A stretch of 64,000 nucleotides of DNA from Anaerolineae bacterium. Lineage in GTDB: Bacteria > Chloroflexota > Anaerolineae > Promineifilales > Promineifilaceae. Each line of letters begins with the position of its first letter. The stretch's first letter is position 1. A program made the position numbers and the translations under genes. The notes below the pieces were generated by a model. It searched no databases, was not told where the DNA came from, and worked only from the letters and a program-made list of their open reading frames with translations. Shown here piece by piece: positions 1 through 64,000 of this stretch. The DNA lies in NCBI GenBank assembly GCA_019637635.1, contig JAHBVI010000004.1, positions 6,497 through 70,496 on the forward strand. The letters are read 5' to 3'.

Positions 1-114
1 TTGTGACTGGCGCAACATAAATTGGTGCCGCCCACCAGAAAAAGGGCCTTCGAACCCTAATTTTTGCAGGCGGTGGATAAATTCGCGGCGTGAAATTGGA
101 GAAAGCTTGGGCAC
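1..114 (-). CDS. hicA: HicA-like mRNA interferase toxin, 3' truncated by window edge
   Basis: GTG at 114-112 directly after the hicB stop. Own translation VPKLSPISRREFIHRLQKLGFEGPFSGGRHQFMLRQSQ matches the HicA N-terminal pattern (R-EF-..L.KLGF....GG.H). Confidence 0.6.
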   Translation of the reverse strand, partial: MPKLSPISRREFIHRLQKLGFEGPFSGGRHQFMLRQSQ

Positions 115-115
115 G

Positions 116-364
116 TTAAAAAGTGACTGGAGCCGGTAATTCTATCGTTGTGTCTGCCAGCGAAGGAATGGGCAACCCTTTGGCAATACTAAATAACAGC
201 CAATCTTCAACGGCTGCCGCCAGATTACGACGACACACTTCAAGCGTTGGGCCTGTGGCCCAAACGCCGGGCAAGTCGGCAATCTCACCATAAAAGGGTT
301 CTTCATCCTCAATCATTTCATATTGGGCCAGCTCTAGAGCTTTGTGAATGTATTCTAAAATCAT
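116..364 (-). CDS. hicB: HicB-family antitoxin (UPF0150-like)
   Basis: 82-aa ORF. The YEMIEDEEPFYGEIADLPGVWATGPTLEVCRRNL pattern is typical of the HicB N-terminal domain. It is immediately followed by the hicA-like ORF. Confidence 0.7.
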   Translation of the reverse strand: MILEYIHKALELAQYEMIEDEEPFYGEIADLPGVWATGPTLEVCRRNLAAAVEDWLLFSIAKGLPIPSLADTTIELPAPVTF

Positions 365-444
365 GGACTTTTCATTCCTGTCAAGATTGGCTTAAACAAC
401 TCAATCGTTAACCAGACAGATTGTACCATACAAGGAAAATTCAG

Positions 445-1314
445 ATGAAACGTGTTTTGAAATGGATTGGTATTGTGATCGGGGGTTTATTGGGCGTCAT
501 TATTTTGGCCTACGGTGTTATGTGGGCCGTCAGCGCCAGCCGGTTGAACCGGACGTATGAAGTCACGGCCAACTTCAACCTCAACATCCCCACGGACCCC
601 GAACGCATCGCCGCCGGGGAAAAGTTGTTCACCATTTACTGCGAAAGCTGCCACGACGCGAATCTGGCCGGGGAACTCTTCTCTGAAGACCCCGCCTTTG
701 GCGAAATCTACAGCGCCAACCTCACCGGAGGCGAAAATGGGATCAGCCGCCGCTACAGCGACGAGGAGATTGCCAGAGCCATCTGGTACGGCGTCAAACA
801 AGACGGCTCGCCGACGGTGGGGATGCCTTACGAATTTAATCATGGCATCCACGTGGGCGACATGGAGAACCTGATCGCCTATCTGCGCAGCGCACCGCCC
901 GTAGACACCAATTACCCCCCACCCAGCTACGGCCCCATGCTGCGCGTCTTCCACACGGCCAATCTGTTCCCCCTGGTGACGGCCGAAAATGTGGCGATGA
1001 GCCAGCCGCCGCCGGCCATCGTCTCCCCGGACGATACGCTGGCTTATGGCGCTTATCTGTCCGTGTTTTGCACCGCCTGTCACGGCCCCGATTTTACCGG
1101 GATTGCCATCGCGGAAACGCCTTCGCTGTGGACGGCCGTAACCACCTGGACAGAAGCAGAGTTTGAGCGGGCGATCACGACGGGGGTGCTGCCCGACGGC
1201 CGCCAGATGGACCCGGAAATGATGCCCTGGCCCTCCTTCAACCTCTACACCGAGGCCGAGCGCCACGCCATCTGGGCTTATTTGCAAAGTTTGGAGCCGG
1301 TGGTACAGGAGTAG
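445..1314 (+). CDS. membrane-anchored diheme c-type cytochrome
   Basis: Two CxxCH haem-binding motifs (CESCH, CTACH) and an N-terminal TM helix. ATG at 445 with upstream AAGGA is preferred over the TTG at 421. Confidence 0.75.
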   Translation: MKRVLKWIGIVIGGLLGVIILAYGVMWAVSASRLNRTYEVTANFNLNIPTDPERIAAGEKLFTIYCESCHDANLAGELFSEDPAFGEIYSANLTGGENGISRRYSDEEIARAIWYGVKQDGSPTVGMPYEFNHGIHVGDMENLIAYLRSAPPVDTNYPPPSYGPMLRVFHTANLFPLVTAENVAMSQPPPAIVSPDDTLAYGAYLSVFCTACHGPDFTGIAIAETPSLWTAVTTWTEAEFERAITTGVLPDGRQMDPEMMPWPSFNLYTEAERHAIWAYLQSLEPVVQE

Positions 1315-1319
1315 CGTAG

Positions 1320-2216
1320 GTGAAACGCTTATGTGCTGGTTTTATAGGGTTGGCGGCGATGGGAGTGGTCTACGGCCGTTACCGCCACGAAAAAGCGCAA
1401 GCCCTGCTAACTTTACGTGCTGGCAGCCAACGGCTCAACGGGGTTGAGTTTGCCATGCAGGGTGAGGGTAAACCGATCCTCATCCTGCATGGCGGTTTTG
1501 GCGCTTACGAGCAAGGGTTGGCCACGGCCGAACTGCTCGGCCTTGACGGACAAATCATCGCCCTGTCGCGGCCTGGGTATCGGCGGACTGGGTTGGGAAA
1601 CGGCCGTACCCTGTCCGAACAAGCGCAAATGGCCTGCCGGTTACTCGACCAGTTGGGCATAGATTCCGTCTACGTCCTGGCTATTTCCGGCGGGGGATTG
1701 GCCGCCCTGCAATTGGCTCTGAACCATCCCACCCGCTGCGCCGGGTTAATTATGCTCTCGGCGCACGGGCCAGCCTTGCTAGAAAAGCGGCCGGCCGCCC
1801 ACTGGTTATGGCTGATGCGCCTGTTTATGGCTAGTGATTTTCCTGTGTGGGTCGCCTTCAAAATGGGCATGTGGGCCTTAATCCGTTTGAACGGCAATCA
1901 AAGGCAAGAGGGTGATTTCGCCAATTTTTGGTCTGGTTTTTTTCCCGGCATCGATTGGCGAGTCGGAATGCTGAACGATTTGGAGCAGTTGTTGGGGCTG
2001 ACCGGGATGCCATTGGAAAATATCCGCGTACCCACTCTGTTGATTCATGGCGATCGGGATACAATTGTTTCGTATAATGTCGCTGTGGACATGCACGGCC
2101 ATATCCCCCACTCTCATATCGTCACCATCCCCGGCGGCACCCATTTAATCGTCGCCACGCACGGCCCGGAAATTGGCCGGGTAGTGGCCCAGTTCATCGA
2201 GGAAAAAGGAATATAA
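1320..2216 (+). CDS. alpha/beta-fold hydrolase
   Basis: HGGFG oxyanion region, nucleophile elbow AISGGG, C-terminal HGDRD..GGTH pattern. Confidence 0.7.
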   Translation: MKRLCAGFIGLAAMGVVYGRYRHEKAQALLTLRAGSQRLNGVEFAMQGEGKPILILHGGFGAYEQGLATAELLGLDGQIIALSRPGYRRTGLGNGRTLSEQAQMACRLLDQLGIDSVYVLAISGGGLAALQLALNHPTRCAGLIMLSAHGPALLEKRPAAHWLWLMRLFMASDFPVWVAFKMGMWALIRLNGNQRQEGDFANFWSGFFPGIDWRVGMLNDLEQLLGLTGMPLENIRVPTLLIHGDRDTIVSYNVAVDMHGHIPHSHIVTIPGGTHLIVATHGPEIGRVVAQFIEEKGI

Positions 2217-2217
2217 A

Positions 2218-2808: not shown

Positions 2809-4286
2809 TGATGCGAACAAAAATCTTACTGCTTGGCCTGGTTGTTTTCTTCCCGCTTATGCCTGCGACACTGGCAGCACAAAGCAACGGCAGTCTCCCC
2901 ACCGTTGATGCCTTTGTCCACGAGCGGATGGAAAGCCTGAACATTCCCGGCGCGGTCGTTGCCATTGTGCATGAGGGTGAAATTGTTCATCTGGCGGGCT
3001 ATGGCACTGCCAACGAAGCGGGCGACCCCGTGACGCCGCAGACGCCGTTTCTGCTGGCCTCATTGAGCAAATCGGTCACGGCCGTGGCCGTCATGCAACT
3101 GGTAGAAGCCGGGCAAATTGAGCTCAACGCGCCCATCCAGAAATACCTGCCCTGGCTGCTGCCCGATACGCCCATTACGGTGCGCCAGCTTTTGCACCAG
3201 ACCAGCGGTTTGGACGAGACGCAGGGCTACCGGCGCAATCTGGAGGCCGACGGCCCTAATGCGCTGACCAACAGCATCCGGCAGTTGGCTGATACGGGGT
3301 TGAACAACCCGCCGGGCGCGGCGTTTGAATACACTAACAGCAACTATGACATTTTGGGGTTGCTTATCGAAACTGTTACGGGTCAGTCATATGCCGACAC
3401 CATTCAGGCCAACGTCTTCACGCCGCTGGCGATGAACAACTCGTTTACCTCGTTGAGCGAAGCCCGCGCCGCCGGGATGAGCAGCGCGTTTTACCCTTTC
3501 TTTGGGCGGCAGATGAGCTTTGACAATCGGATGCCCTACACGCGGGCGGTGCAACCTTCGGCGGGGTTGATTGGCAGCGCCGAAGATATGGCCCATTATA
3601 TGCTGGCTCATCTGGATAACGGCCGTTACCAGACTACCCAACTCCTCTCCCCGGCCAGCGTCCAGACATTGCACACCCCGGCTGCCGATGTGCCGTATGC
3701 GATGGGCTGGGCCGTCTGGCCGTTTGACGACGCCGCCTTGCCGGGTGATGATGCGCCAACGGCCGTTTCCCACGGCGGTGAATGGCTCGGCTTCAACAAC
3801 ATGATTGTCCTCATCCCGGAGTATGATTTAGGCGTGGCCGTGCTGATCAATGGCCCCGACTCCATCCGCAGTTCCGCTTATAGCAACATCGCTTTTGACG
3901 TCGTTCTGCTGGCATTGGGGCTGGAGGCGCAGCATTACCCGCCGCAAGAAGATTGGCTGACGCAGGGGTTACGGCCGTTATCCGTGATCATCATTTTGTT
4001 CTTGTTTGCCAGTGGGGTAGTGGCTATCCGGCGGCTGCGGCGGCTGCGCCGTTCTGCGTTTAGCCGCCGTGATAGCTGGACTTTTATCGCGTTGGCGCTG
4101 ATTGACCTGGCACTGGCGGGCTACCTGCTCTTTATCCGCCTGCCCGACGCCAAATCCAGCGTGTCCCTGACCCTGCGCTTTCAACCCGACCTGGGGCTCC
4201 TGCTGCTGGTCATCCTGCTGCTGACATTGGGTTGGGGATTAATCCGTTCGCTGTGGGCCGTCTGGCGCTGGCGAGCCAGCCATTAA
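2799..4286 (+). CDS. serine hydrolase of the beta-lactamase/PBP (class C-like) family with C-terminal TM helices
   Basis: Signal peptide, SxxK motif (SLSK), YxN-like YTNSNY, C-terminal hydrophobic segments. Confidence 0.75.
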   Translation: MGLMMRTKILLLGLVVFFPLMPATLAAQSNGSLPTVDAFVHERMESLNIPGAVVAIVHEGEIVHLAGYGTANEAGDPVTPQTPFLLASLSKSVTAVAVMQLVEAGQIELNAPIQKYLPWLLPDTPITVRQLLHQTSGLDETQGYRRNLEADGPNALTNSIRQLADTGLNNPPGAAFEYTNSNYDILGLLIETVTGQSYADTIQANVFTPLAMNNSFTSLSEARAAGMSSAFYPFFGRQMSFDNRMPYTRAVQPSAGLIGSAEDMAHYMLAHLDNGRYQTTQLLSPASVQTLHTPAADVPYAMGWAVWPFDDAALPGDDAPTAVSHGGEWLGFNNMIVLIPEYDLGVAVLINGPDSIRSSAYSNIAFDVVLLALGLEAQHYPPQEDWLTQGLRPLSVIIILFLFASGVVAIRRLRRLRRSAFSRRDSWTFIALALIDLALAGYLLFIRLPDAKSSVSLTLRFQPDLGLLLLVILLLTLGWGLIRSLWAVWRWRASH

Positions 4287-16515: not shown

Positions 16516-16540
16516 TGTCACAAAATGTCACCTTTGTCAC
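16516..16540. promoter_or_regulatory. three direct TGTCAC repeats (spacing 10 and 9 nt) in a divergent promoter region
   Basis: tTGTCACaaaaTGTCACcttTGTCAC read directly. Lies between the APH/STAND operon (-) and the lipoprotein/beta-helix genes (+). Confidence 0.25.
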
Positions 16541-16646
16541 GGCCGTTACCCCTATCTTACGGCGATGAAAACAAAACGGGTGATTTTGACGATTGAAACA
16601 ATCGAAACCACAACGATCACCCTGAACGCACAAGGAGATATGCCTG

Positions 16647-17285
16647 ATGAAACAACTTCTCGTTTTGTATTTATTGCTGTGCGGCGCGATGTTTGGCGTA
16701 GCTTGTGGCGGCTCGGAAGCGGTGAGCGGATCGAAGACCGGCAGCAGCCAGGAGACGACCAACAACCAGACGGCCGTTAATCCACCAACGGCCGTGCCCG
16801 CAACCCCAGAATCTACTACTAACACCAGCTGCGAAGATTACTTTCGCTTTTGCACCCACGTGCAGATCAGCGGCAGCGTGACGGCCGATTTCACCAGCGG
16901 CATCGGCGGTAATGTGCCCGACTGCGCGGAATGGGTCGCCGGCGGGGCGTCGCGGCACCTGGATTTGCCGATGGTGCAGGCGTTTGAGCAAACGCCGCCG
17001 GTTGTGGTGGCGCTGACGGCGCTGGGAGAATACACCGGGCCGGGGCGCTATGAGATGCAGCACACCAAAACGGGCGCGCTGCCAGATTGGTTCCCATCGC
17101 TGACTGTGGGCGAGCGGGCATTTGAGCGGGGGGAGGGGGCAACGGCCGTTGCCGAAGTCGCCGCCGATGGTTCCGGCACATTCACAGCCACCGGGCTGGT
17201 GGAAGTGGCCTCCCTGCAAAACAGCAGCCCCGACGCGGACGCGCAGGTGGATTTAACCGTGACCTGGACGTGTCAGGAACCGTAA
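16647..17285 (+). CDS. putative secreted lipoprotein, unknown function
   Basis: Lipobox-like signal (LLLCGAMFGVACGG) followed by a low-complexity S/T/N linker. No recognisable family. Confidence 0.5.
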   Translation: MKQLLVLYLLLCGAMFGVACGGSEAVSGSKTGSSQETTNNQTAVNPPTAVPATPESTTNTSCEDYFRFCTHVQISGSVTADFTSGIGGNVPDCAEWVAGGASRHLDLPMVQAFEQTPPVVVALTALGEYTGPGRYEMQHTKTGALPDWFPSLTVGERAFERGEGATAVAEVAADGSGTFTATGLVEVASLQNSSPDADAQVDLTVTWTCQEP

Positions 17286-35825: not shown

Positions 35826-35869
35826 CCAATACTTCTGCCTCAGAATCAGGAATTGAATAATTTGTATAC

Positions 35870-35917: not shown

Positions 35918-35956
35918 CTGGCTACAACCATTATTTGATTCATCTCTTCACTTCCA

Positions 35957-37519: not shown

Positions 37520-37536
37520 CGCCAACCCGAGGTTCC

Positions 37537-38469
37537 ATGAATTTTTCTGTGATTATTTGCGCCCATACGGAGGAGCGCTGGCAAGATTTAATCGAAGCGG
37601 TGGCTTCGGTAGCCAACCAGACCATACCCCCCCACCAAATTGTCGTTGCTATTGACCATAACCCGGCCATGTTGGCCCGCGCCCGCGCCCAATTTCCAGA
37701 AGCAACGGTGGTAGAAAATGTGCAAGAACGCGGCCTGAATGGCACGCGCAACAGCGGCGTGGCTGCCACCACCGGCGAGATTGTGGCTTTTCTGGATGAT
37801 GATGCCATTGCCGCCCCCGATTGGTTGGAACAGCTACAGGCGGCGTATACGGCCGTACACATCGTCGGTGCGGGTGGCAAAATCAATCCCCTGTGGCTCA
37901 ACGGCCGTCCCCGCTGGTTCCCCGAAGAATTCAATTGGGTCGTGGGCTGCACCTATCGTGGCCTGCCGGAACAAACCGCCCCGGTACGCAACCTGATCGG
38001 CTGCAACATGTCCTATCGCCGCGCCGTGATCGAGCAAATGGGCGGCTTTCGCAACGGCATTGGGCACGTAGGCGGCCGGCCACAGGGTGACGACGAGACC
38101 GAATTTTGCATCCGGCTGCGCCAGGCCATGCCCCAGGCCACCCTGCTCTACCAACCCCAGGCGCAGGTATCTCACAAAGTACCCGCCGGTCGCGCCAATT
38201 TTGGTTATTACCGCTGGCGTTGTTACCTGGAAGGGCGCTCCAAAGCACTGCTCTCCCGCCTGGTGGGGGCCAATGACGGCCTGTCTACCGAGCGCACCTA
38301 TACGCTCAAAGTATTGCCCAGCGGCATGTGGCACGGCCTGACAGACAGCGCCCGCCACCGTAACCTGGCCGGTATTGGCCGGGCCGCGGCCATTGCCGCC
38401 GGTCTATTTATCACCACCTTCGGCTATGGGTTGGGGCGTCTGACCCTCGTTGGCAAACGGGTTGAGTAG
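37537..38469 (+). CDS. GT2-family glycosyltransferase
   Basis: MNFSVIICAHTEERW.., FLDDDA (DxD). Start moved to ATG 37537; the listed upstream extension overlaps the kinase gene. Confidence 0.75.
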   Translation: MNFSVIICAHTEERWQDLIEAVASVANQTIPPHQIVVAIDHNPAMLARARAQFPEATVVENVQERGLNGTRNSGVAATTGEIVAFLDDDAIAAPDWLEQLQAAYTAVHIVGAGGKINPLWLNGRPRWFPEEFNWVVGCTYRGLPEQTAPVRNLIGCNMSYRRAVIEQMGGFRNGIGHVGGRPQGDDETEFCIRLRQAMPQATLLYQPQAQVSHKVPAGRANFGYYRWRCYLEGRSKALLSRLVGANDGLSTERTYTLKVLPSGMWHGLTDSARHRNLAGIGRAAAIAAGLFITTFGYGLGRLTLVGKRVE

Positions 38470-38499
38470 CCAGGAGGCCTGGCTTACGGTATAAACAAC

Positions 38500-38533
38500 A
38501 GACCCTAAGGGTTTTCTGAAACCCTTAGGGTCT
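38500..38533. terminator. perfect 15-bp stem / 4-nt loop hairpin
   Basis: agaccctaagggttt tctg aaacccttagggtct, 31 nt after the GT2 stop. No clear T-tract. Confidence 0.5.
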
Positions 38534-38556
38534 ATGGGTATTTTAGGATTGATTTC

Positions 38557-41732: not shown

Positions 41733-42492
41733 AGTAACCAACCGGCTGATCATGATATTGGTAACGGCCGTGCTGATGCTGCTGACCCTGCTGGAATGGG
41801 AACTCAGCGCCGTGCGGGTCTTATTTGCCGTCGCCCTGGTGGGCATCCTGCCCGGCTACGCCCTGACCACCGCCATATTCGTCAAATACCCGCTTGGTTT
41901 TGCCGAAAAGCTGGCCTTTAGCTGCGGCCTCAGTCTGGGGCTGGCGGCCGTTGGTGGGCTGCTGCTGCATTTCACACCCTGGGGTTTGCAGCCGGCCTCC
42001 TGGGTCATCTATCTGGGCGGCATCACCGTCGTCGCCAATGCCCTGGCGCTGGGGCGGATGCAGCAAACCACGCAGGTAGACCTGAGCGTCATTCACGTGC
42101 CGCTGCGCCTGCACCAACTGCTGCTCATGTTTCTGGCCGGCGTCGTGATCATGGGCGCATTTCTAACGGCCCGCGCCGGCGCCGAGAACCGGCCCGCGCC
42201 CCAGTTCACACAGTTATGGCTGCTGTGGGCCGATGATACCCAAAGTGAAGTCCAGCTAGGCATTCAAAACCAGGAAAATGGCGTCCGCCAATACCGGCTG
42301 GAATTAAGCACCCGCCAGGGACAAACGCAAGAATGGCCGGTGATTACGCTGGCTCCTGGCGAAACCTGGCAAATCACGTTCCCACCGCCGCCGGCCGTTG
42401 GCGAAACTGATTTTATTAAGGCCACCCTTTACCGGCTGGACGCGCCGCAAGAAATTTACCGTGAAGTCTATCTGCGGCGTATCGCCCGGTAG
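41722..42492 (+). CDS. membrane protein (DUF1616-like: N-terminal TM bundle + C-terminal beta domain)
   Basis: Four to five TM helices, then a soluble domain (QLWLLWADDTQSEVQLGIQNQE..YRLEL). Family assignment is from memory and tentative. Confidence 0.4.
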   Translation: MTAKVTNRLIMILVTAVLMLLTLLEWELSAVRVLFAVALVGILPGYALTTAIFVKYPLGFAEKLAFSCGLSLGLAAVGGLLLHFTPWGLQPASWVIYLGGITVVANALALGRMQQTTQVDLSVIHVPLRLHQLLLMFLAGVVIMGAFLTARAGAENRPAPQFTQLWLLWADDTQSEVQLGIQNQENGVRQYRLELSTRQGQTQEWPVITLAPGETWQITFPPPPAVGETDFIKATLYRLDAPQEIYREVYLRRIAR

Positions 42493-42506
42493 GAGAGAGT
42501 AATAAG

Positions 42507-43838
42507 ATGCCCACACGACTACACATGATGCTAACAAAGAATTGGTGGGTTGATATGTTGACCAGCAACCGGGTCATTTTGGTGAATGCCCTGTCGTTGG
42601 TAGGCACCCTGATGGTCACCTCCGGCCTGGGTTTTGCCTATTGGTGGGTAGTGGCGCGGCAGTTCACGGCCGCCGAAGCGGGGTTGGCAGCCGCGGCCGT
42701 TTCCGCCATGTTATTGCTCGGCACCATCGGTATGATGGGCATGGGCACTTTACTCATTGGCGAACTGCGCCGCCGTTCACAAATTGTGGTCTCGCTCATT
42801 ACGACGGCCCTGGTTATAGCCGGCGTAGCTTCTCTGCTGTTGGGGGCCGGTTTTGCCATTGTTTCCGCTTATTTTTCGGCCGACTTTGCCTTGCTCACAG
42901 CGTCCTGGAAAAATTTCCTGTTGTTTACGGCCGGGGTGGCCATCACGGGCATGGTCCTGGTGCTGGATCAGGCTATGTTGGGGCTGCTGCACGGAAGCTG
43001 GCAGTTGTGGCGTAATGCTGTTTTTGCCATCAGTAAACTCATCCTGCTCTTCCCCATTGCTACCTATTTCCGGCAAGCCGGGGCCATGGCGATTTATGCC
43101 GCCTGGTTTTCAGGCAATCTCGTGTCGCTGGTTTTTCTGGTATGGCTGGTGGGACGAAGGCGACTGCTGACGGCCAGCTACCGGCTGCGCTGGGATGTTT
43201 TCCGCGAACTGCGGGGCATGGCGCTGGCGCATCATATCCTTAATCTGTCCTTGCAAACGGTGCAGTTTGCCATGCCGGTCATTGTCACCATCATGTTATC
43301 GCCGGAGATAAACGCCAGTTTTTACGTGGCCTGGCTGGTAGCCAGCAGCCTGTTCATTGTGCCCACCTCCCTGACACAGGCGCTTTATGCCATCAGTTCG
43401 GCTGACGTCTCGATGCTGGCGCAAAAAATTCGCTTTACGCTGCGCGCTTCGGTAATGGGGGTAGTGGCTGCGGGGCTGGTTATTATGGTGGGCGCGGAGT
43501 TTATGCTGAACTTTTTTGACCCGGCTTATGGGGAAACGGCCGCGCTAAGCCTGCGGATTTTGCTGCTGGCGGCTTTACCCATCATTATTCGGGTACATTA
43601 TGTGGCCATTCGCCAGATCAGGCGCGAACTGAAACAGGCTGCGACGTTGTTTCTGGCGGCGGCTGTTTTGGAGTTGTCGCTGGCAATTACCGGGGCGGCT
43701 GTGGGTGGCCTGACGGGGCTGAGCGCCGGTTGGGTGCTGGCTATCTATCTGGAAGGGGTCTGGATGGCCCCGGCCGTGTACCGGGTGGCCGTGCAGGCGA
43801 AAACGCTCCCGCCGACTTCCGGGGAACCTGTTCACTGA
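42507..43838 (+). CDS. MOP/Wzx-type polysaccharide flippase
   Basis: About 12-14 TM helices, around 440 aa. Context of glycosyltransferases. Confidence 0.6.
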   Translation: MPTRLHMMLTKNWWVDMLTSNRVILVNALSLVGTLMVTSGLGFAYWWVVARQFTAAEAGLAAAAVSAMLLLGTIGMMGMGTLLIGELRRRSQIVVSLITTALVIAGVASLLLGAGFAIVSAYFSADFALLTASWKNFLLFTAGVAITGMVLVLDQAMLGLLHGSWQLWRNAVFAISKLILLFPIATYFRQAGAMAIYAAWFSGNLVSLVFLVWLVGRRRLLTASYRLRWDVFRELRGMALAHHILNLSLQTVQFAMPVIVTIMLSPEINASFYVAWLVASSLFIVPTSLTQALYAISSADVSMLAQKIRFTLRASVMGVVAAGLVIMVGAEFMLNFFDPAYGETAALSLRILLLAALPIIIRVHYVAIRQIRRELKQAATLFLAAAVLELSLAITGAAVGGLTGLSAGWVLAIYLEGVWMAPAVYRVAVQAKTLPPTSGEPVH

Positions 43839-43844
43839 GGCAGC

Positions 43845-44660
43845 ATGGCATTAGACCGCGTTGAAAGTTGGGTTGTGGCCGCGGCCGCCGGTTTGGTGGC
43901 TTTGTTGGCTGAGGTGCTGCTGATACAGTCGTTTGTCTTGTCGGGCATAACACTGTACAGCGTGCTGCTCATTTTGCTGCTGCTGTATGGCACTTTTCGC
44001 TGGCCGCATCCGCAGCACGAACTGCTGGTGCTGACCATCCCGGCTGTACTGCGACTGATGGCTTATACCTTACCCCTGGGCAACCTATCACCTCTGTTTG
44101 CACAATTGGTGGTGAGTGTCCCGGTAGGATTAACCGTCGTTACCTACAGATGGCTGTTGGAACAACAATGGCCTAAATGGCCCAGTTTTCGGATTGCCTG
44201 GCAGCAGTTTCCTCTCTATCTACTGCTGGTAGCGGCCGGCGCCGCGGGCGGCTGGTTGCTATACCAGTTCCAGCAGCCAGCGCTGCCGGGACCGGGCAGC
44301 CCCCTGCTCTGGCTCTTTTACGCTTTTGTGCTGGTGGCGGCGATGGCGTTTCTGGAAGAATGGTTGTTCCGGGGCATCATGCAAAACGCGCTGACCCGAC
44401 TATGGCACAATCGGTTTGTGGCCGGATTGGTAGTTGCCCTCATCTACACCACCCTCAGCCTGGGACAAGGCCCCTGGCCCTACATCCTGCTCATCTTTGT
44501 GATGGCGCTGGCGTTAAGCTGGTTGCGGCAGACCACCAACAATCTGGTGGGCGTCACCGTGGCCCATGCCGCTGCCAATCTGATGTTTTTTTTGATCTTA
44601 CCAGGCATGAGTAGCGCCAGCCTCCTGGCTCACTTGCTGGCCTTGGGGGTATTTGCATGA
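43845..44660 (+). CDS. CPBP-family (CAAX-protease-like) intramembrane glutamic endopeptidase
   Basis: Motif 1 EEWLFRG (EExxxR), motif 3 HAAAN (HxxxN), polytopic. Confidence 0.7.
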   Translation: MALDRVESWVVAAAAGLVALLAEVLLIQSFVLSGITLYSVLLILLLLYGTFRWPHPQHELLVLTIPAVLRLMAYTLPLGNLSPLFAQLVVSVPVGLTVVTYRWLLEQQWPKWPSFRIAWQQFPLYLLLVAAGAAGGWLLYQFQQPALPGPGSPLLWLFYAFVLVAAMAFLEEWLFRGIMQNALTRLWHNRFVAGLVVALIYTTLSLGQGPWPYILLIFVMALALSWLRQTTNNLVGVTVAHAAANLMFFLILPGMSSASLLAHLLALGVFA

Positions 44661-44890
44661 ACGTGTTGTTACCGCCGGCGGCGCTCACGGCCGTGCGTCA
44701 GGAAGAGCTGTACCTGTACTTGCAATTGATTGCGGTGTTTACACTGCTACTGCTGCTGATCGGCCGGGAACTAACCATCGGCCTGAAATTCCCCTATGCC
44801 CGCTGGCGGCGCGTGTCGCTGGTGGGCATTGTGCCCCTGCTCTTCGCCTTTCTACTTATTTTGATGTGGCATATCGTCCGCTCCATGTAG
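44657..44890 (+). CDS. small two-TM membrane protein, hypothetical
   Basis: ATGA overlap with the CPBP gene and two hydrophobic helices. Overlaps the convergent GT2 gene by 39 nt. Weak support. Confidence 0.3.
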   Translation: MNVLLPPAALTAVRQEELYLYLQLIAVFTLLLLLIGRELTIGLKFPYARWRRVSLVGIVPLLFAFLLILMWHIVRSM

Positions 44891-46201
44891 GTCTAGCTCG
44901 CGCTGGTGCAGCAGGCGGCGGGTCTGGCGGCGGCTTTTCAGGTAAGCGTACCCGCCGTAAAGCATCCCACGCAGTTCCAACCCATTCAAGTCGGCGGGAT
45001 ATTCGGCCTGCTTTTTGACATTCTTAAAGGATTGCGGACTGAGCAGCAGATAGAGACCATACGGAATGCGCAGCACAAAACCAGGGATGCGGCCGGGGTT
45101 ATCCCACATGGTTTTGGTGAGAAACGCGGCAAAGCCGACGCCATAGTTGTAAATTTGCTTTTGCAGGGCAGCGTATTCACGGCGGTGAATGTGCTGCAAA
45201 AAGGCAGTTGGTTCATAAACCAGTTGGTAGCCGGCAAACAATAGCTGCACATACATGGCCAGGTCGTCACCACAGGTGGTAATGGTGCCCGCACCCAGAG
45301 CCGGGTCAAAGTAGCCCACCTTTTCCAGGGCGCTTTTTTTGATGGACAGGTTGGCGCCGGTACCAAATAGTCCGGCAGAGAGGGGGTAAAACGGCCGTGC
45401 CGGTTTATACACCCCCATATCATAAATCTGCCGCTCGTACCCCTTGTTGAACCCACCCGACTGCTCAAACCAGAGCTGCTCCACCGTATCCAGTTCCGCC
45501 GGGATGGTCAGCCCATTCACGCCGCCCACATTGTCGCCCGCGGCAAAGCCACGCAGCACGCCAATCAGCCAATGCGGATCCACAATCACGTCATCATCGG
45601 TATTGGCGATGATCTCCCCCCGCGCCGCCATCGCCCCTGTATTCCGCGCCCAACACTGCCCCTGGTTTGGCTCCACCACATAGCGTATATGGGGCAGATG
45701 CCCATACTTTTCCTGCACCACGCGCCGGGTGGCATCGGTGCGCGGCGCATTATCCACCACCACCACCTCGTAATTTGGATAATCCAATGCCAACACCGAA
45801 TTCAGGCACACATCCAGCATAGACGGCCGTTCATGGGTGCAAATGACCACACTGATCAACGGTGGATTCTCCAACAAACGGGCCTGCTCTTGCTGGCACA
45901 ACGGTGGCTGCGAGTGAGAAATGCCCGTCAGGGGCAGTTCGCTCAGGCGCGGCCAGCCATCCTGCTCTAAATGCGTATTGATCGCCTGGCCCAGCGCCGC
46001 CCATATGGCCGGGGCATAATCCGTCGGCAGCAGCATTTCCGCCGTCATGGGCAGTTCCAGCAGCCCCAGGGGATGATTGTGCAGGCGCACCAATAGTTGC
46101 ACCGCGCCATAACGCAGCCCTTTGCCGGGGTCTACGGCCGTGATGGGGGGTAAGACAGAGCTTAACTCAATTTTCGTAACATAAATAGGTTGGAATGTCA
46201 T
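44852..46201 (-). CDS. GT2-family glycosyltransferase with an approximately 110-aa N-terminal extension
   Basis: ISVVICTHERP.., NTDDDV (DxD), QSGGFN... pattern. Confidence 0.75.
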   Translation of the reverse strand: MTFQPIYVTKIELSSVLPPITAVDPGKGLRYGAVQLLVRLHNHPLGLLELPMTAEMLLPTDYAPAIWAALGQAINTHLEQDGWPRLSELPLTGISHSQPPLCQQEQARLLENPPLISVVICTHERPSMLDVCLNSVLALDYPNYEVVVVDNAPRTDATRRVVQEKYGHLPHIRYVVEPNQGQCWARNTGAMAARGEIIANTDDDVIVDPHWLIGVLRGFAAGDNVGGVNGLTIPAELDTVEQLWFEQSGGFNKGYERQIYDMGVYKPARPFYPLSAGLFGTGANLSIKKSALEKVGYFDPALGAGTITTCGDDLAMYVQLLFAGYQLVYEPTAFLQHIHRREYAALQKQIYNYGVGFAAFLTKTMWDNPGRIPGFVLRIPYGLYLLLSPQSFKNVKKQAEYPADLNGLELRGMLYGGYAYLKSRRQTRRLLHQRELDLHGADDMPHQNK

Positions 46202-46324
46202 ATGCGGCTTATTTTCAGGTTAGCGTATAATGATGTTTCACCGAACGAATACTGGATAATACCCGAAATAAAGAGTATCGTCAGGAAATCTACCAGACTC
46301 CGTAGAGTTACAAGAGAGAAGAAT

Positions 46325-48589
46325 ATGCTAACTAAACTCCATTTTATTTCCATTTTTTGCCTGGCTTGTTTCTTTTTAAGTGGGAGCATTACCCCGGCTG
46401 TGGCCCAAGAACAAGGAATACCAGAGCAAGAAGTACCGGAAACAACCAGCCGGACATTTGCCGATTTAGGTTATGAGGACTTACGCTTAAAAGGTCTATA
46501 TGGCATTAGTTCGCTGTGGATTCCTTTCCAATCCGATTGGCCTATCGCCGATGACGTGCAATTTGAACTGACTTATACCGGCTCCCCGCTGCTAAACAGT
46601 AATGCCGCCATTATGACCATTCTGGCGAACAACCAGGAAGTAACCAGCTTTCGGCCGGTGGGCGACGGCCGTCCGCACACCATCACCTTCTCCGTGCCAC
46701 CCGGGCAACAACTGCCCGGCGGCATCAACCTCACCTTTGCCGGACATTTGCGGCTCACCGACGACCCCTGTGAAGACAGTTTTAACGTGGGCCAATGGCT
46801 CACCGTTCACAACAACAGCCGGGTCAACGCCAATCTGCTGCCCACCGCACCCACGCCGGAAATCACCGATTTACCCCAGGCAATTGTGGTACAGGGCAGC
46901 CAAAACCCACCACCCATCATCTTTGTGCTGCCGGAAAATGCGGACGATCAGACATTATCAACCGCCGCCCAGGTGGCCACTCGGTTAGGTGGCGGCCTCA
47001 CGGCCGATCACCTGCCCATCCGTGTGGCCACTGCCAACAGCCTGACCGACGCCAACAAAAGAAACGCCAACCTGGTGCTGATTGGTCTACCGGGCAACCA
47101 GCCCCTCATCCAGGAGTTGAGCAGCCTGATGCCGGTTCCCCCAACCGAGGCTGGTTTTGTGTCTCAAGATGGCGTACTTATCCCGTCTGGCGATGGCGTT
47201 ATCCAGATATTTCCCTCTCCCTGGCAGCCCCGCCATCATATCCTGCTCGTCAGCGGCAATGACGCCGCCGGACTGGCCAAAGCCGGGCAGGCTTTTGCCC
47301 ATCAACCCACGTTTGAATCCTTAACCGGCTCCTTCCATTTTGTGCGCGATCTGGTCAATCGGCCGGAGCCGCCCGTGCCCCCACCCTGGACAACGGCCCA
47401 AACGACCTTTACCCAATTGGGTGAAGTGGATCGTGAGGTGGTGGGGTTGGGGCTGACTGACAGTTCCTATTTTTTCCAATATCCACCGGGGACTATGCTG
47501 GCCGATAATGCCAAACTGGTGCTGCATCTGGCGTTTAGCCCGGCCTTACGCGCCCAGGGTTCTTATGCCGAGGTATACGTCAACGACATTTACGTGGGGG
47601 CGGTGGAAGCGGCCCGCGCGGGCGGCGGGGCCTGGGTCTCGTTAGATTTACCGGCACAGGCATTAAACGAGTTGATTCGCAACGGCCGTGCCCGCGAACT
47701 AAACGTCAAGCTCGCCATTGCCAATCTGCTGCCCGCCAATAACTGTGAACAGGTGAATGCGGAAAGCAGTTGGACCAAAATCTACGCCGATTCCTACTTC
47801 CAATTCGATTTTCTGCCGGTGGAGTTGCCCGACCTTTACCACTTCCCCTACCCGTTTGTAACGCCGGAGAACCATACGCCGGTACGCCTGGTTTTGCCCC
47901 AAACGCCCACCGTTGAAGAGCTGCAAACGGCGCTTTCCGTATCGGCACTGATGGGCAGCCAGGGCATAGCCGATTTGACGGTAGACGTGGTGCGGGGGAC
48001 GGCCGTTGATCTCGAAGCCCTTGCCGGCCATCACCTGGTTCTCATTGGCACCCCCTTTGACAACCCGGTGCTGCAAGAGACGATGGCCGGGCAGCAAACC
48101 AGTATGCCGGTGGAGGTATACCAGGTTTTAGGCACGCCAAACGCCGGGTTTTTCCATATGTTCACCTCGCCCTGGGATGAAACAATGAGTGCATTGGGCA
48201 TCTATGGGGAAATGGAACCCGGCTTTCAGGCAGCGGCCAATACGTTGTATGAACAGGGCCGGTTGGCGAGTGAATCTGGCTCCATTGCCCTGGCCCGCAC
48301 CGGGGAAGCGCCGGTCATCATTTACCGGGAAGCCGGATTGTCCGGCCCGCAGTTTGTTCAACCGGACATCATTCTGTCGGAATCCGGCCAACAGCCAGAC
48401 GCTGCCGCCGATCCCACGGCCACGGCCGTGACCGCCAGCGAATCCACATCCCCCACCAGCGAAACAGAAACGGATTCCGGTAACAGACTCACCAATACCG
48501 AACAACTCATTTTGATCATCACCGCCTTCCTCATCATTCTGGTAACGGTGGCAGCGCTGCTTCGTATCGCCTGGCGCATTCGGGCATAG
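46325..48589 (+). CDS. BcsB-like (cellulose-synthase regulatory subunit-like) periplasmic protein with a C-terminal TM anchor
   Basis: Signal peptide from ATG 46325. Two repeats of the pattern L.L.Y..SP.L....S...v..N......(C..D/E....W..i...S). Single C-terminal TM helix. Family call is from pattern memory only. Confidence 0.4.
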   Translation: MLTKLHFISIFCLACFFLSGSITPAVAQEQGIPEQEVPETTSRTFADLGYEDLRLKGLYGISSLWIPFQSDWPIADDVQFELTYTGSPLLNSNAAIMTILANNQEVTSFRPVGDGRPHTITFSVPPGQQLPGGINLTFAGHLRLTDDPCEDSFNVGQWLTVHNNSRVNANLLPTAPTPEITDLPQAIVVQGSQNPPPIIFVLPENADDQTLSTAAQVATRLGGGLTADHLPIRVATANSLTDANKRNANLVLIGLPGNQPLIQELSSLMPVPPTEAGFVSQDGVLIPSGDGVIQIFPSPWQPRHHILLVSGNDAAGLAKAGQAFAHQPTFESLTGSFHFVRDLVNRPEPPVPPPWTTAQTTFTQLGEVDREVVGLGLTDSSYFFQYPPGTMLADNAKLVLHLAFSPALRAQGSYAEVYVNDIYVGAVEAARAGGGAWVSLDLPAQALNELIRNGRARELNVKLAIANLLPANNCEQVNAESSWTKIYADSYFQFDFLPVELPDLYHFPYPFVTPENHTPVRLVLPQTPTVEELQTALSVSALMGSQGIADLTVDVVRGTAVDLEALAGHHLVLIGTPFDNPVLQETMAGQQTSMPVEVYQVLGTPNAGFFHMFTSPWDETMSALGIYGEMEPGFQAAANTLYEQGRLASESGSIALARTGEAPVIIYREAGLSGPQFVQPDIILSESGQQPDAAADPTATAVTASESTSPTSETETDSGNRLTNTEQLILIITAFLIILVTVAALLRIAWRIRA

Positions 48590-48607
48590 GTGGCCATTGG
48601 GTAAGTT

Positions 48608-49406: not shown

Positions 49407-49979
49407 ATGGACACAGGCGAATCTGACCTGGTTCTACCGCGCGAAAAAGGAAGTTACGCGCTTCTTTTACGGCTAGACCAGAGTGCGTGGCTGCAAATTG
49501 GGCGATTGGGGCGGTGGCCGTTTGCCGCCGGGTATTACCTCTACCTGGGCAGCGGGTTGGGACCAGGGGGATTGGCGGCGCGGCTGCGGCGTCATTTGTC
49601 GCCGGTGGAACGGCCGTTTTGGCACATAGATTATTTGCGGCGTCAGGCAGTGGTCACGGCCGTGTGGGTTCAGGAAGGCCCGGCGCGTCTGGAATGTACC
49701 TGGGCGGCGTTGGCGGCACGGCCGTTATACATCCACTTTGATACCGACATCATCAATCCGCTGGACGCACCGGCGATGAGCTACCTGGCCACAGGTGGGC
49801 CACGGGCTGCCGCGTTGACGCCGATATTTCGCCATCTGGCGCAGCGTGGTCAAGTGACGGCCGTGTCCCTCTCCACCTGGAACCCAAAGCTCGATACAAA
49901 CGGGCGAACCAGGGAAATCTGCATGGGGCTGCTCGGGGAGTTGCTAGATGCCGCCACGCAAACAGCCACAGACTTTTGA
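49407..49979 (+). pseudogene. chimeric ORF: DUF123 (GIY-YIG/Uri-like) N-terminal part fused to an arginase/ureohydrolase-family C-terminal fragment
   Basis: N-terminal GYYLYLGSG..ARLRRH..RPFWHIDYL is the DUF123 signature. From about aa 110, IHFDTDIINPLDAP...GGP...VTAVSLSTWNPKLD resembles the last third of arginase-fold enzymes, and the upstream two thirds are absent. Confidence 0.4.
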
Positions 49980-62369: not shown

Positions 62370-62372
62370 GGG

Positions 62373-62456
62373 GAGATTGGAGATTGGAGATTGGAGATTG
62401 GGAGATTGGGAGATTGTAATCTCTTAATCTCCTAATCTCTCAATCTCTTAATCTCC
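62373..62456. repeat. inverted GAGATTG x6 / TAATCTC x6 arrays at the UXS/ligase junction
   Basis: gagattg x4, ggagattg x2, then taatctc ttaatctc ctaatctc tcaatctc ttaatctcc. Fills the whole intergenic gap. Confidence 0.9.
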
Positions 62457-62460
62457 TCCC

Positions 62461-63402
62461 TTACACCCTCCCCCGAAAGTAAGCAATCGTTTCCGTTAAC
62501 CCTTCCGCCAGGTTTATCTTTGGCTCCCAGCCCAACACCTGCCGTGCTTTGTTGATGTCCGGGCGGCGCACTTTGGGGTCGTCGGTTATACGGTCATCTT
62601 TGGGGTGAATAAAAACAATCTCCGATTCACTACGTGATATTTCTTTGACAGCCTCGGCGAATTCCAAGATCGTCATCTCTACCGGATTGCCGATATTGAC
62701 CGGCAGCTTTTCATCGGAGTGCAGCAGCCGGTAAATACCTTCAATCAGATCGCTGTAATACTGGAAGGAACGGGTGCGGCTGCCATCGCCATACACGGTG
62801 ATGGGCTGGTTGGTGAGCGCCTGGTAGATAAAGTTGGGCACGACACGGCCGTCGTGCAGCCGCATCCGTGGCCCATAGGTGTTGAAAATGCGCACAATGC
62901 GCGTTTCCAGACCATGATACCGCTGGTAAGCCAGCGTCATGGCTTCGGCAAACCGCTTGGCCTCGTCATACACCCCGCGCGGGCCAATGGGGTTCACATG
63001 CCCCCAATACGTCTCCGGCTGCGGGTTGATCTGCGGGTCGCCATATACCTCCGACGTGGAAGCCAGCAAATACCGCGCTCCTTTGGCCTTGGCCAGTCCC
63101 AACGTATTGTGGGTGCCCAACGACCCCACCTTCAAGGTGGGAATGGGATGTTCCAGATAATCGTTCGGGCTGGCAGGCGAGGCAAAATGCAGCACGGCAT
63201 CCAGCGGCCCGGCCACATAGATATAATTGCTCACGTCTTGCTCAAAGAAACTAAACCGTTCATGCCCCATCAAGTGGGCAATGTTGTCCATATTACCGGT
63301 GATCAGGTTGTCCATGCCGATGACCTCGTGGCCTTCGGCAATAAACCGGTCAGACAGGTGAGAACCCAGAAAACCAGCAGCTCCTGTAATTAATACACGC
63401 AT
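62461..63402 (-). CDS. UDP-glucuronate decarboxylase (UDP-xylose synthase), SDR family
   Basis: [23 protein letters not shown], and YDEAKR catalytic motifs, with high similarity to UXS. Start at ATG 63402 with GGAGGC 5 nt upstream. Confidence 0.85.
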
Positions 63403-63767
63403 AGTAGCCTCCAATTCAAATACATCTCGATATTGTAACGTGGGTAAAGGTGGGTGACGAATGGTTACGGCCGTTTGGCCGGAAATCGTATATCATGCGC
63501 AGCTTACACGTTGGCTATCTACCGCTACAACGTCGGTGAACATTCAGGGCAATAGTCCACTACCAAAGCCAGCACCCCCCGCCACGTCACCCAACAGTGA
63601 TAAATGTCCTACAAATTTTGTGACGTTCCCCCCATCCCCCACAGCGAAAAATCGCGCATTATTATCCCAGCAAACCTTACAAACCATACCCCACCCCCAC
63701 CGGCATCCTCATTTCACGGCAAGACCATATCTGATAAACCCATTATCAGTAGATCAAGGCAGTGTTC

Positions 63768-63805
63768 GCATCCTCAGATGCGAACCGGTGGGCATCTGAG
63801 GATGC
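63768..63805. promoter_or_regulatory. perfect 14-bp stem / 10-nt loop hairpin in the pckA upstream region
   Basis: gcatcctcagatgc gaaccggtgg gcatctgaggatgc, 50 nt upstream of the pckA ATG. Confidence 0.4.
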
Positions 63806-63855
63806 CCACTCCTCTCATTTCGCTCTACTGATTATAAAAAAAAGGAGCATGTCAA

Positions 63856-64000
63856 ATGTCTGATTTTAGTCCAATCTCCCGCAGCCCCATTGGGCTGGAA
63901 ACACACGGCCTGAACAATCTGAAAACCGTTTACTGGAACCTGCCCACCCCATCCCTTTACGAAGAGTCACTTAAGCGGCACGAAAGCATCATGGCCCATC
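63856..64000 (+). CDS. pckA: phosphoenolpyruvate carboxykinase (ATP), N-terminal fragment (runs off the window)
   Basis: GLETHGLNNLKTVYWNLPTPSLYEESLKRHESIMAH matches the conserved PckA N-terminus. AAAGGAG RBS upstream. Confidence 0.7.
   Translation, partial: MSDFSPISRSPIGLETHGLNNLKTVYWNLPTPSLYEESLKRHESIMAH

Follow-up and report, generated by a model that had tools for sequence, protein, structure and literature searches.

The window and its most frequent palindrome

The window, meaning the whole stretch of 64,000 bases analysed here (contig JAHBVI010000004.1, positions 6,497 to 70,496; GC 58%), comes from a member of the Promineifilaceae, filamentous Chloroflexota, and carries the 8-bp palindrome ACGGCCGT in very high copy number. 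Genes were called by codon-usage score, which gave 52 genes covering 93% of the window; they include a polyketide cluster resembling polyunsaturated fatty acid (PUFA) synthases, acyl-CoA carboxylase subunits, paaABCD, trmD, two-component regulators, glycosyltransferases and BcsB, and are ordinary chromosomal genes. ACGGCCGT was counted exactly 144 times, that is 2.25 per kb or one per 444 bases; a preliminary description, made from the sequence alone, had put the number at about 144 where about 2 were expected. The sites are given by their start positions, together with their extremes of spacing and the one segment of lower density (no strand is assigned).

144 sites of ACGGCCGT, each from start to start+7, exact count, starts: 1132, 1372, 1600, 3078, 3619, 3759, 3971, 4598, 4690, 5214, 5816, 5947, 6081, 6216, 7723, 7762, 8197, 8617, 8701, 9523, 9946, 10399, 10781, 10879, 11085, 11823, 12078, 12156, 12281, 12332, 13117, 13759, 14077, 14462, 14677, 15549, 15895, 16353, 16539, 16770, 16788, 17142, 17556, 18141, 18279, 18598, 19055, 19228, 19827, 19973, 20089, 20515, 21041, 21403, 21728, 22568, 23198, 23609, 23751, 23915, 24527, 24972, 25050, 25836, 26249, 26374, 26842, 27764, 27939, 28795, 29711, 30257, 31303, 31809, 32156, 32268, 32868, 33981, 34324, 34918, 36965, 37082, 37316, 37849, 37901, 39478, 40737, 41208, 41413, 41628, 41764, 44687, 45391, 45823, 46134, 46665, 47682, 47999, 48422, 48812, 48907, 49310, 49610, 49656, 49718, 49857, 50146, 50338, 50460, 50509, 50638, 50971, 51037, 51133, 52154, 52345, 52644, 53041, 53392, 53572, 55071, 55255, 55376, 55490, 56264, 56618, 57191, 57614, 57656, 58076, 58648, 59245, 59540, 59704, 59936, 60802, 60940, 61027, 61507, 61936, 62242, 62311, 62845, 63467
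16770..16795: closest pair of sites in the window, starts 18 bp apart
41772..44686: longest stretch free of the word, 2.9 kb, within the lower-density segment 34350..48600
34350..48600: lower-density segment, 20 copies, 1.4 per kb against 2.5 per kb elsewhere in the window

Copies were spread evenly along the window (5–16 per 4 kb) with a mean spacing of 436 bp, a median of 351 and a coefficient of variation of 0.93, which is locally near random placement. Dinucleotide-preserving shuffles (n = 100) contained on average 1.46 copies (sd 1.18, maximum 5), so that the earlier estimate of the expected number was right and the observed/expected ratio (O/E) is about 99. A much stricter null (O/E about 7) was obtained by shuffling synonymous codons within each called gene (n = 500), which retains both codon usage and the inflated content of the tripeptide Thr-Ala-Val (TAV); it gave a mean of 19.4 copies (sd 3.9, maximum 32) compared with 138 in genes, and the enrichment thus withstood, on the window, the codon-preserving comparison that the preliminary description had named as a check. 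The runner-up among palindromic 8-mers reached only 5 copies. The hexamer CGGCCG occurred 206 times, in 144 cases flanked by A...T; the other 62 compare with 47 expected for all CGGCCG. All 24 one-letter variants of ACGGCCGT were rare, those deviating at inner positions being present mostly 0–3 times (two reach 5) and those deviating at positions 1 and 8 present 2–10 times.

Coding context and effect on proteins

Called genes contained 138 copies, 72 in plus-strand and 66 in minus-strand genes, divided 89/33/16 among the three frames, in which the word is read as T-A-V, [NDHY]-G-R and x-R-P-[FLSYCW], respectively. Six copies lay outside gene calls, four of them in one ambiguous open reading frame (ORF) region; the non-coding copies number 2–6, and 96% of all copies are within ORFs. 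This agrees with the distribution described before (genes on both strands, all three frames and a few intergenic spots), and the peptides quoted at that time as examples were located at 1126-1149, 3612-3632 and 3966-3986.

1132..1139, plus strand: frame-0 example (ACG GCC GTn = T-A-V), in LWTAVTTW, cytochrome c gene 421-1314 (plus)
3619..3626, plus strand: frame-1 example (nAC GGC CGT = [NDHY]-G-R), in LDNGRYQ, beta-lactamase-family gene 2799-4286 (plus)
3971..3978, plus strand: frame-2 example (nnA CGG CCG Tnn = x-R-P-x), in GLRPLSV, same beta-lactamase-family gene 2799-4286 (plus)
16539..16546, no strand: intergenic copy between genes 15296-16411 (minus) and 16647-17285 (plus)
49610..49864, no strand: four copies in a stretch without gene call, overlapping ORF 49083-49979 (plus)

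The last-named ORF covers the 3' end of trmD (48608-49372) and encodes a DUF123 domain and an arginase-like C-terminal fragment; a frameshift or a gene fusion may account for it.

Nearly all codon contexts able to host ACGGCCGT carry it: the word spells 89 of the 92 TAV, 33 of the 37 [NDHY]GR and 15 of the 18 xRP[FLSYCW] contexts. With 92 occurrences against 9.7 expected from amino-acid composition, TAV is the top over-represented tripeptide. One might take the word for a by-product of composition, thrown up by Thr-Ala-Val-rich proteins that are written in the favoured codons ACG, GCC and GTN; the T-A-V frame does hold 62% of copies and GC content at third codon positions is high (about 0.7). 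Such an origin is nevertheless refuted by the codon-preserving null and by the three-frame distribution, and we regard it as very improbable. Fixed proteins and codon usage yield 19 copies instead of 138, and the other two frames and non-coding DNA are filled with ACGGCCGT as well. TAV is raised 9.5-fold, yet the five other orders of T, A and V occur 9–24 times each, with VAT, TVA, ATV and AVT at expectation. At the positions of the window's ACGGCCGT copies, orthologues from lineages without the word have different residues; and gains of the word often proceed by an Ala-to-Val change, the conversion of ACGGCCGC to ACGGCCGT, which has this effect in frame 0, having been seen 10 times in the alignment described below. 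From these five points, namely the codon shuffle, the other frames with the non-coding copies, the excess confined to TAV, the other residues in word-less orthologues and the Ala-to-Val gains, it follows that causation runs from DNA to protein and that ACGGCCGT has altered protein sequences.

Occurrence in related genomes

The acyl-CoA dehydrogenase gene of the window (32697-34349, minus strand) has 80–97% identical relatives annotated as Chloroflexota, Ardenticatenaceae, Promineifilaceae or 'Candidatus Leptofilum', the latter placed in Chloroflexota; Ardenticatenia; Promineifilales; Promineifilaceae. One genome per GTDB species was scanned, giving 80 loci of at most 21.6 kb around the orthologue of this gene (named L001 and so forth). 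ACGGCCGT was the top palindromic 8-mer, with 12–22 copies per 10 kb, in L001-L013, L017, L019, L022 and L039, and was present at 3–10 per 10 kb in the deeper branches L021, L023-L026, L028, L032 and L041; in this 80-locus scan it was not found in the loci of Caldilineaceae, Roseiflexus, Amarolinea and other more distant relatives. About 20 independent metagenome-assembled genomes (MAGs) of Promineifilaceae/Ardenticatenaceae carry the word in orthologous and non-orthologous DNA, with 12–22 copies per 10 kb; they derive from at least 8 independent projects with short-read and long-read sequencing and include a complete chromosome of 6.36 Mb. ACGGCCGT is a genome- and lineage-wide word and not a mobile element.

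That the word might be an artefact of assembly, binning or sequencing, or be limited to the window, was also considered; the preliminary description had named confinement to the window as an outcome that would speak against it, and the opposite was found, some 20 MAGs and 24 IMG/VR contigs (see below) carrying ACGGCCGT. The same word at equal density in MAGs from at least 8 independent projects, and sites at conserved orthologous positions, refute this explanation, to which we give practically no weight.

Conservation and direction of substitution

Aligned sites were conserved far better than the background of other 8-mers. Between the window and L001, 41 of 48 aligned ACGGCCGT sites were identical (85%, compared with 38.5% of other 8-mers); the corresponding figures were 21 of 22 (95% against 36%) for L002 and 12 of 19 (63% against 17%) for L003, and in relatives of about 74% identity 38–50% of sites were identical compared with 12–16% of other 8-mers. 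Gaps affected 6 of the 163 sites aligned with seven relatives; 157 were gap-free, and the differences are substitutions.

The direction of change was analysed in a query-anchored codon alignment of 14.1 kb and 19 taxa; ancestral states were assigned by Fitch parsimony, and other 8-mers in the identical pipeline served as the null. For ACGGCCGT, 589 branch-site events were scored as kept, 47 as lost and 106 as gained, and per branch 92.6% of sites stayed unchanged (background 69%). Where an ancestral word was one letter off, the deviating position was converted to the base of the word in 41 cases and to a different base in a single case (null 0.387, binomial p = 3e-16). The rate of gain per one-off word per branch was 14.2%, compared with 1.6% in the null (about 9-fold), and single-step loss was 1.7%, compared with 24.5% (about 1/15); the product of the gain and loss ratios, about 130, is in line with the observed enrichment. 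Half of the single-step gains (23 of 46) took place at positions 1 or 8. Within the same genomes, GCGGCCGC behaved like the null, from which it follows that the directional bias is specific to ACGGCCGT. The word thus arises by point substitution at near-word places, including substitutions that change the protein, its fixation is strongly directional, and the substitution process, which acts at the DNA level, is word-specific and found throughout this bacterial family.

These alignments also bear on the idea that ACGGCCGT is part of a miniature mobile element, a tandem-repeat family or a repeat of the repetitive extragenic palindrome (REP) type. Some metagenome contigs do consist of degenerate short repeats (GTACACGGCCGT...) with 10–18 copies per kb. 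In the window, by contrast, the flanks have no conserved sequence beyond a weak preference of up to 4 positions on each side, copies sit inside conserved ORFs, orthologues align without indels and differ by substitutions, and Tandem Repeats Finder detected no array built on ACGGCCGT. The flank profile and the ungapped orthologous alignments refute a repeat-family, REP or miniature inverted-repeat transposable element origin for the window, and we find it scarcely credible. Repeats of the latter two types are mostly intergenic, longer than the core and inserted as blocks with conserved flanks, whereas 96% of the copies of ACGGCCGT are in ORFs.

The contigs with GTACACGGCCGT-type repeats (L241, L259, L306, L288, L253 and similar short metagenome contigs) have recurrent spacings of 12, 19, 23 and 45 bases and 5–18 copies of ACGGCCGT per kb, are apparently non-coding, and come mostly from a single sample group (Ga0056108, Ga0056133-135, Ga0209259 and Ga0209459); their repeats include ACGGCCGT but represent a distinct phenomenon.

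Flanks, dialects and avoidance of the core

Flanking bases in the window were compared with codon-position baselines, and an excess was found of G at -4 and -3 and of C at +3 and +4 (z = 6.6, 4.0, 5.6 and 5.5). Extended forms that keep the palindrome were AACGGCCGTT, CACGGCCGTG, CGCGGCCGCG and CCCGGCCGGG, with GG at -4/-3 and CC at +3/+4. The preference is symmetric to at least 16 bp, and from the symmetric excess the preferred site can be written as the 16-bp palindrome GGnnACGGCCGTnnCC. The extent of the flank preference differed among relatives: AACGGCCGTT made up 21 of 25 sites in L017 and 22 of 34 in L039, A was present at 67% of the half-sites flanking the word in the clade of L004-L007, L011 and L022, and in the window's own clade the flanks were relaxed to [C/A]ACGGCCGT[G/T].

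Outer letters also differ among sub-lineages, in the manner of dialects, around the CGGCCG core. L014 (Ca. Trichofilum aggregatum) and L016 had no ACGGCCGT and 40 and 34 copies of GCGGCCGC (O/E 34-38); L018 had 52 copies of CCGGCCGG (O/E 20), and L030 had CCGGCCGG and GGCCGGCC. Both GCGGCCGC and CCGGCCGG were flanked preferentially by C...G. Tentative dialects, on account of few copies, are GGCCGGCC in L030, TCGGCCGA in L036 (6 in 6.4 kb) and TGCCGGCA in L015 (10). CGCGCGCG, which heads the palindromes of the CGGCCG-poor sister lineages described next and looked like a further HIP in L027, L042 and L075, was dismissed, its numbers being explained by dinucleotide content (O/E 1-2).

Other lineages lack the core. 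CGGCCG was present in 0 copies, with 11–26 expected, in L027, L029, L033 and L042 (Poisson p down to 6e-12); taken more widely, L027, L029, L033, L034 and L042, and also L015, L020, L037 and L044, had none or almost none where 3–26 were expected. To judge from the sequences, this avoidance in sister lineages of the same order looks like the footprint of an active restriction system of the EagI type.

A neighbour-joining tree was built from about 4,700 aligned residues of seven linked genes in one genomic neighbourhood. L018, which uses CCGGCCGG, fell inside the ACGGCCGT clade, grouping in 80 of 100 bootstraps with the core taxa to the exclusion of L039 and all word-less taxa, and the ACGGCCGT taxa alone were never monophyletic; L014 and L016 were placed in a sister clade together with lineages free of CGGCCG. 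Switching of words in place was rejected: the GCGGCCGC and CCGGCCGG sites of sister lineages are not at the positions of ACGGCCGT in the window, and each word therefore accumulated independently.

The word on phage-like and conjugative-like contigs

IMG/VR was scanned for two copies of ACGGCCGT 30–60 bases apart, which returned 120 loci. Truly dense were 24 of these predicted viral contigs, with 10–37 copies per 10 kb, among them L081, L098, L137, L093, L195 and L133. In L081, part of a 40 kb contig, 44 copies were counted over 14.7 kb; it is phage-like, with genes for a small terminase subunit, a DnaC/IstB-like loader and a GIY-YIG-like protein. L098, which comes from a 100 kb contig, contains 49 over 13 kb, encodes ParA-like and FtsK/TraB-like proteins and a transglycosylase, and resembles a conjugative element. 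Elements presumably resident in these hosts thus carry the word at chromosomal density or above. On the dense contig L137 a fragment of an N6-type methyltransferase was noted at 2549-3640 (minus strand).

Other features of the window

The lower-density segment coincides with a 14 kb block (34350-48600) of glycosyltransferase, DUF1616, CAAX-protease-like, membrane-protein and BcsB genes. The block is absent from the closest relative, L001, in which sequence up to 34324 of the window is joined directly to sequence from 48812 onwards (acyl-CoA dehydrogenase to the trmD region). It may be a variable surface-polysaccharide island, and its lower density of ACGGCCGT could reflect recent acquisition or a different gene composition.

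A cluster on the minus strand (19763-34349) comprises acyl-CoA carboxylase subunits (biotin carrier, biotin carboxylase, carboxyltransferase), a phosphopantetheinyl transferase, a KR-DH protein, a KS-AT-ACP polyketide/PUFA-type synthase of 1883 aa and the acyl-CoA dehydrogenase. The cluster is conserved, with synteny throughout the 80 loci and in much of Anaerolineae/Ardenticatenia. Small genes of defence or toxin-antitoxin type, for a nucleotidyltransferase/HEPN pair, a UPF0150 (HicB-like) protein and a Uma2-family protein, lie at 6853-7636, 116-364 and 19071-19745 (all minus). Tandem arrays of heptamers were also present, with units GGAGATT, ACCGATT, GATTACG, CGGTAAT, CGTAAGC, GTAATCG and AATTCAT in 4–8 copies each; many are at gene boundaries and some within the ORF of the 1883-aa polyketide synthase.

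Heptamer arrays: 19744-19778, 20309-20347, 23949-23979, 27246-27288, 27585-27640, 29630-29675, 32671-32697, 52763-52821, 54342-54373, 56995-57038, 60068-60094, 61835-61885, 62372-62455

GGAGATTGG occurs 26 times in the window (0.47 expected). The arrays resemble the heptameric short tandemly repeated repetitive sequences of cyanobacteria and would be a second cyanobacteria-like repeat feature here. Rfam and tRNA scans of the window gave no matches.

Class of the element and possible mechanism

The preliminary description had likened the word to HIP1, the highly iterated palindrome (HIP) of cyanobacteria, with a different word, and the comparison is borne out: abundance, occurrence in every frame as well as outside coding DNA, spread through substitutions, conservation, variants at outer positions and palindromic extensions, that is all the HIP properties that can be assessed in sequence (PMC5861425, PMC4390886), were found. 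With an O/E of 99 and 2.25 copies per kb, ACGGCCGT exceeds the HIP thresholds of Xu et al. 2018 (>0.2 per kb, O/E >16; PMC5861425). It is very probably a HIP-class element maintained by a word-specific directional process. Overall, the window is probably best explained as carrying the HIP of an uncultured Promineifilaceae bacterium, with a mechanism in the style of HIP1 as the most likely one.

As to how the word could be maintained, it would be read in double-stranded DNA by a two-fold symmetric, lineage-specific protein of drifting specificity; a symmetric protein on duplex DNA is suggested by the dialects, all of which are perfectly two-fold symmetric up to 16 bp. Judged from the core, which is constant in the ACGGCCGT, GCGGCCGC and CCGGCCGG lineages while the outer letters vary and which is avoided in neighbours, enzymes of the modification or restriction type directed at CGGCCG would be at work across the order, and this reader is most probably a component or a partner of such a system. 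The same pattern in sister lineages lends indirect support to a link with CGGCCG-directed enzymes, as the preliminary description had suggested from the resemblance of CGGCCG/GGCC to restriction-modification targets. An orphan methyltransferase might mark the core, and a process favouring marked sites, either biased mismatch or heteroduplex repair or the preferential uptake or recombination of word-carrying DNA, would then fix new copies. Such a methylation-coupled version of the mechanism debated for HIP1 is put forward tentatively, by analogy.

Candidate genes for the marking step were looked for with tblastn, using approximate queries for M.HhaI, M.HaeIII, Vsr and an N4/N6 motif, against all retrieved loci; the only complete C5-methyltransferase on a CGGCCG-rich contig was in L172. 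This IMGVR_UViG contig (52% GC) has 80 CGGCCG in 13.2 kb where 5.4 are expected, with a half-site preference only (ACGGCCG), and the methyltransferase gene lies at 1253-2596 (plus; C5 cytosine type, PF00145, E = 4e-69). The gene was dropped as a lead to the writer, the closest homologues (at most 52% identity) being on phage contigs that are not CGGCCG-rich. A metagenome scan with a three-copy ACGGCCGT pattern gave mostly short contigs, many of them from the unrelated GTACACGGCCGT repeat, and no methyltransferase. The sole restriction-like candidate in the window is the Uma2-family protein, of a family listed in Pfam as putative restriction endonucleases.

Several points weigh against this explanation. 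No DNA methyltransferase, Vsr or restriction gene was found within the 64 kb window. Only 10 of the 46 single-step gains came from words with an inner-position C/T or G/A transition, and gains are not dominated by T-to-C changes; no single hot cytosine appeared among the single-step losses (n = 13). A simple repair ratchet of the Vsr type acting on T:G mismatches was rejected on both grounds, albeit with small numbers. Elhai's model for HIP1, in which G-methylcytosine (G-meC) is central, does not transfer; the core is preceded by A, G or C depending on the lineage, which argues against that model as a general rule. Conservation and directional gain cannot separate selection at each site from biased conversion, being compatible with both alike. 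Finally, the parsimony reconstruction is approximate, though the null came from the same pipeline, and the phylogeny is a neighbour-joining tree of 7 linked genes with 80% bootstrap at the key node.

Under one of the alternatives, ACGGCCGT would be a signal for DNA uptake or transfer, comparable to uptake signal sequences (USS) and DNA uptake sequences (DUS): a competence or DNA-processing protein would read the word, word-carrying DNA would be preferred in uptake or recombination, the resulting drive would spread its copies, and dialects would limit exchange to close relatives. Dialects around a constant core are also a trait of the DUS of Neisseriaceae, about 2 copies per kb is of the order of USS/DUS density, and directional gain with slow loss would be expected of a drive linked to transformation. 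In Synechococcus PCC 7002, natural transformation is increased as much as 100-fold by methylated HIP1 sites (bioRxiv 10.1101/2024.09.10.611283), and HIP1 abundance correlates with DNA-transfer genes (bioRxiv 10.64898/2026.06.24.733823). Against this, known uptake sequences are asymmetric; ACGGCCGT and its dialects are all perfect palindromes with flanks symmetric to 16 bp, which points to a symmetric dimer on duplex DNA, and phage-like and conjugative-like contigs carry the word at 30–37 per 10 kb, above the chromosome and independent of transformation. By analogy with these systems, an uptake signal is a rather unlikely explanation taken by itself; it overlaps the HIP1-style mechanism preferred here and does not exclude it.

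Alternatively, each copy could be a site for a nucleoid-associated or chromosome-organising protein and be kept by selection, as Xu, Lawrence and Durand view HIP1. Conservation far above background is the pattern that Xu et al. read for HIP1 as selection related to chromosome structure (PMC5861425), and the symmetric 16-bp preference resembles the footprint of a dimeric DNA-binding protein. It is unexpected for an architecture signal, though, that a 40-kb phage-like contig and a conjugative-element-like contig are denser than the chromosome, and the density on phage-like contigs argues against a purely architectural role; moreover, the spacing is close to random placement within 64 kb (coefficient of variation 0.93), and complete avoidance of the core hexamer in neighbouring lineages is left unexplained. 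We judge such a site improbable, more so than an uptake signal.

Significance

The function of HIP1, known since 1993, is still disputed, and biased repair, a part in chromosome architecture, and the uptake or recombination of DNA have each been proposed; to our knowledge, the evidence on HIPs has so far come from one phylum and essentially one word. In the full-text literature neither ACGGCCGT as an abundant motif nor any HIP outside cyanobacteria was found, in keeping with the earlier remark that the word may be undescribed, subscription journals being thinly covered so that absence is not proof. A preprint of June 2026 still treats HIPs as cyanobacterial (bioRxiv 10.64898/2026.06.24.733823). 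With moderate confidence, we propose an independent HIP system with a CGGCCG core in Chloroflexota (Promineifilales), in which the outer letters were switched repeatedly (ACGGCCGT, AACGGCCGTT, GCGGCCGC, CCGGCCGG), other sisters purge the core, proteins have been rewritten, and phage-like and conjugative-like elements are loaded with the word.

A second independent occurrence in another phylum would make the HIP phenomenon a general one and would rule out explanations tied to GATC/Dam or to G-meC as its general cause. Close relatives with different dialects or with avoidance of the core amount to a natural experiment, in which comparative genomics and existing nanopore methylation data can point to genes. 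If the proposal is true, the 30-year-old question of HIP function becomes directly testable in a second independent system, for which many complete long-read MAGs of the family exist, and the reader or writer protein could be found by comparing, genome by genome, the dialect in use with the genes present and the methylation calls. ACGGCCGT also shapes protein sequences and provides a sharp marker of the abundant filaments of activated sludge, for taxonomy as well as for binning; its density on contigs of mobile elements is a possible marker for host prediction.

Comparison with known systems

USS of Pasteurellaceae and DUS of Neisseriaceae are non-palindromic words of about 1 per kb that serve natural transformation. 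They share with ACGGCCGT the location of short words in genes, preferred frames, effects on peptides, directional drive and lineage dialects with a constant core; they differ in being non-palindromic and acting in transformation, whereas ACGGCCGT is palindromic and also dense on phage-like and conjugative-like contigs. The asymmetry that marks a USS or DUS is absent from ACGGCCGT and its dialects, all of them perfect palindromes with symmetric flanks.

CGGCCG (EagI/XmaIII/Eco52I) and GCGGCCGC (NotI) are classical type II recognition sites, and we know of no enzyme that recognises ACGGCCGT. Restriction targets are usually avoided and not enriched 100-fold; the under-representation in the host by which such avoidance is recognised is not seen in the window, where the word is about 100-fold over-represented. 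In the Nanomotif supplement, CGGCCG is documented as an N4-methylcytosine and 5-methylcytosine motif in environmental MAGs (bioRxiv 10.1101/2024.04.29.591623), and none of the MAGs listed there with CGGCCG methylation could be linked to Promineifilaceae.

Very-short-patch repair by Dcm/Vsr in E. coli leads to a modest rise of methylatable CCWGG. In both cases a methylatable word would be favoured by repair, and Dcm/Vsr is the template of the repair-ratchet models of HIPs (PMC4390886 section 3.4); the effect in E. coli is modest and not 100-fold, gains of ACGGCCGT are not T-to-C dominated, and no vsr or dcm was seen in the window.

Alternate HIPs have been described in cyanobacteria, namely GGGATCCC in Synechococcus JA-3-3Ab/JA-2-3B'a, TCGATCGA in Dactylococcopsis and CAGGCCTG in Synechococcus PCC 6312 (PMC5861425, PMC4390886). 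There, too, one hyper-abundant palindrome is replaced by another in relatives, sometimes with the inner letters kept (PMC5861425; PMC4390886). The series found here is denser and more systematic within one family (ACGGCCGT, AACGGCCGTT, GCGGCCGC, CCGGCCGG and tentatively TCGGCCGA, TGCCGGCA, GGCCGGCC), and it has neighbouring lineages wholly without the core hexamer.

The closest counterpart is HIP1 itself (GCGATCGC), which occurs in cyanobacteria at 0.2–2.73 per kb and is 16–317-fold enriched (PMC5861425). Both words are GC-rich perfect palindromes of 8 bp, and ACGGCCGT, with 2.25 per kb and about 100-fold enrichment, is inside the range of HIP1. Both are found in every frame as well as outside coding DNA, propagate by substitution and not by insertion, are conserved between species and vary at the first and last letters; one-letter deviations of HIP1 are concentrated at outer positions, and a methyltransferase for the word or its core, encoded in the genome, counts among the traits of the class (Elhai 2015, PMC4390886). 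Palindromic extensions are likewise shared, as in GGCGATCGCC of HIP1 (PMC4390886). A quasi-periodic spacing on the scale of 10–90 kb is a further trait by which the class is described (Xu et al. 2018, PMC5861425). The differences begin with the phylum, Chloroflexota, and with the core, CGGCCG here and CGATCG in HIP1. ACGGCCGT contains no GATC, so that the Dam-type adenine methylase which accompanies HIP1 has no site in it, and has A before the core, so that Elhai's G-meC reading is inapplicable; its flank preference reaches 16 bp, and a cognate methyltransferase is only putative. New relative to HIP1 are thus the phylum, the core, the lack of GATC, the series of dialects and the avoidance of the core in relatives.

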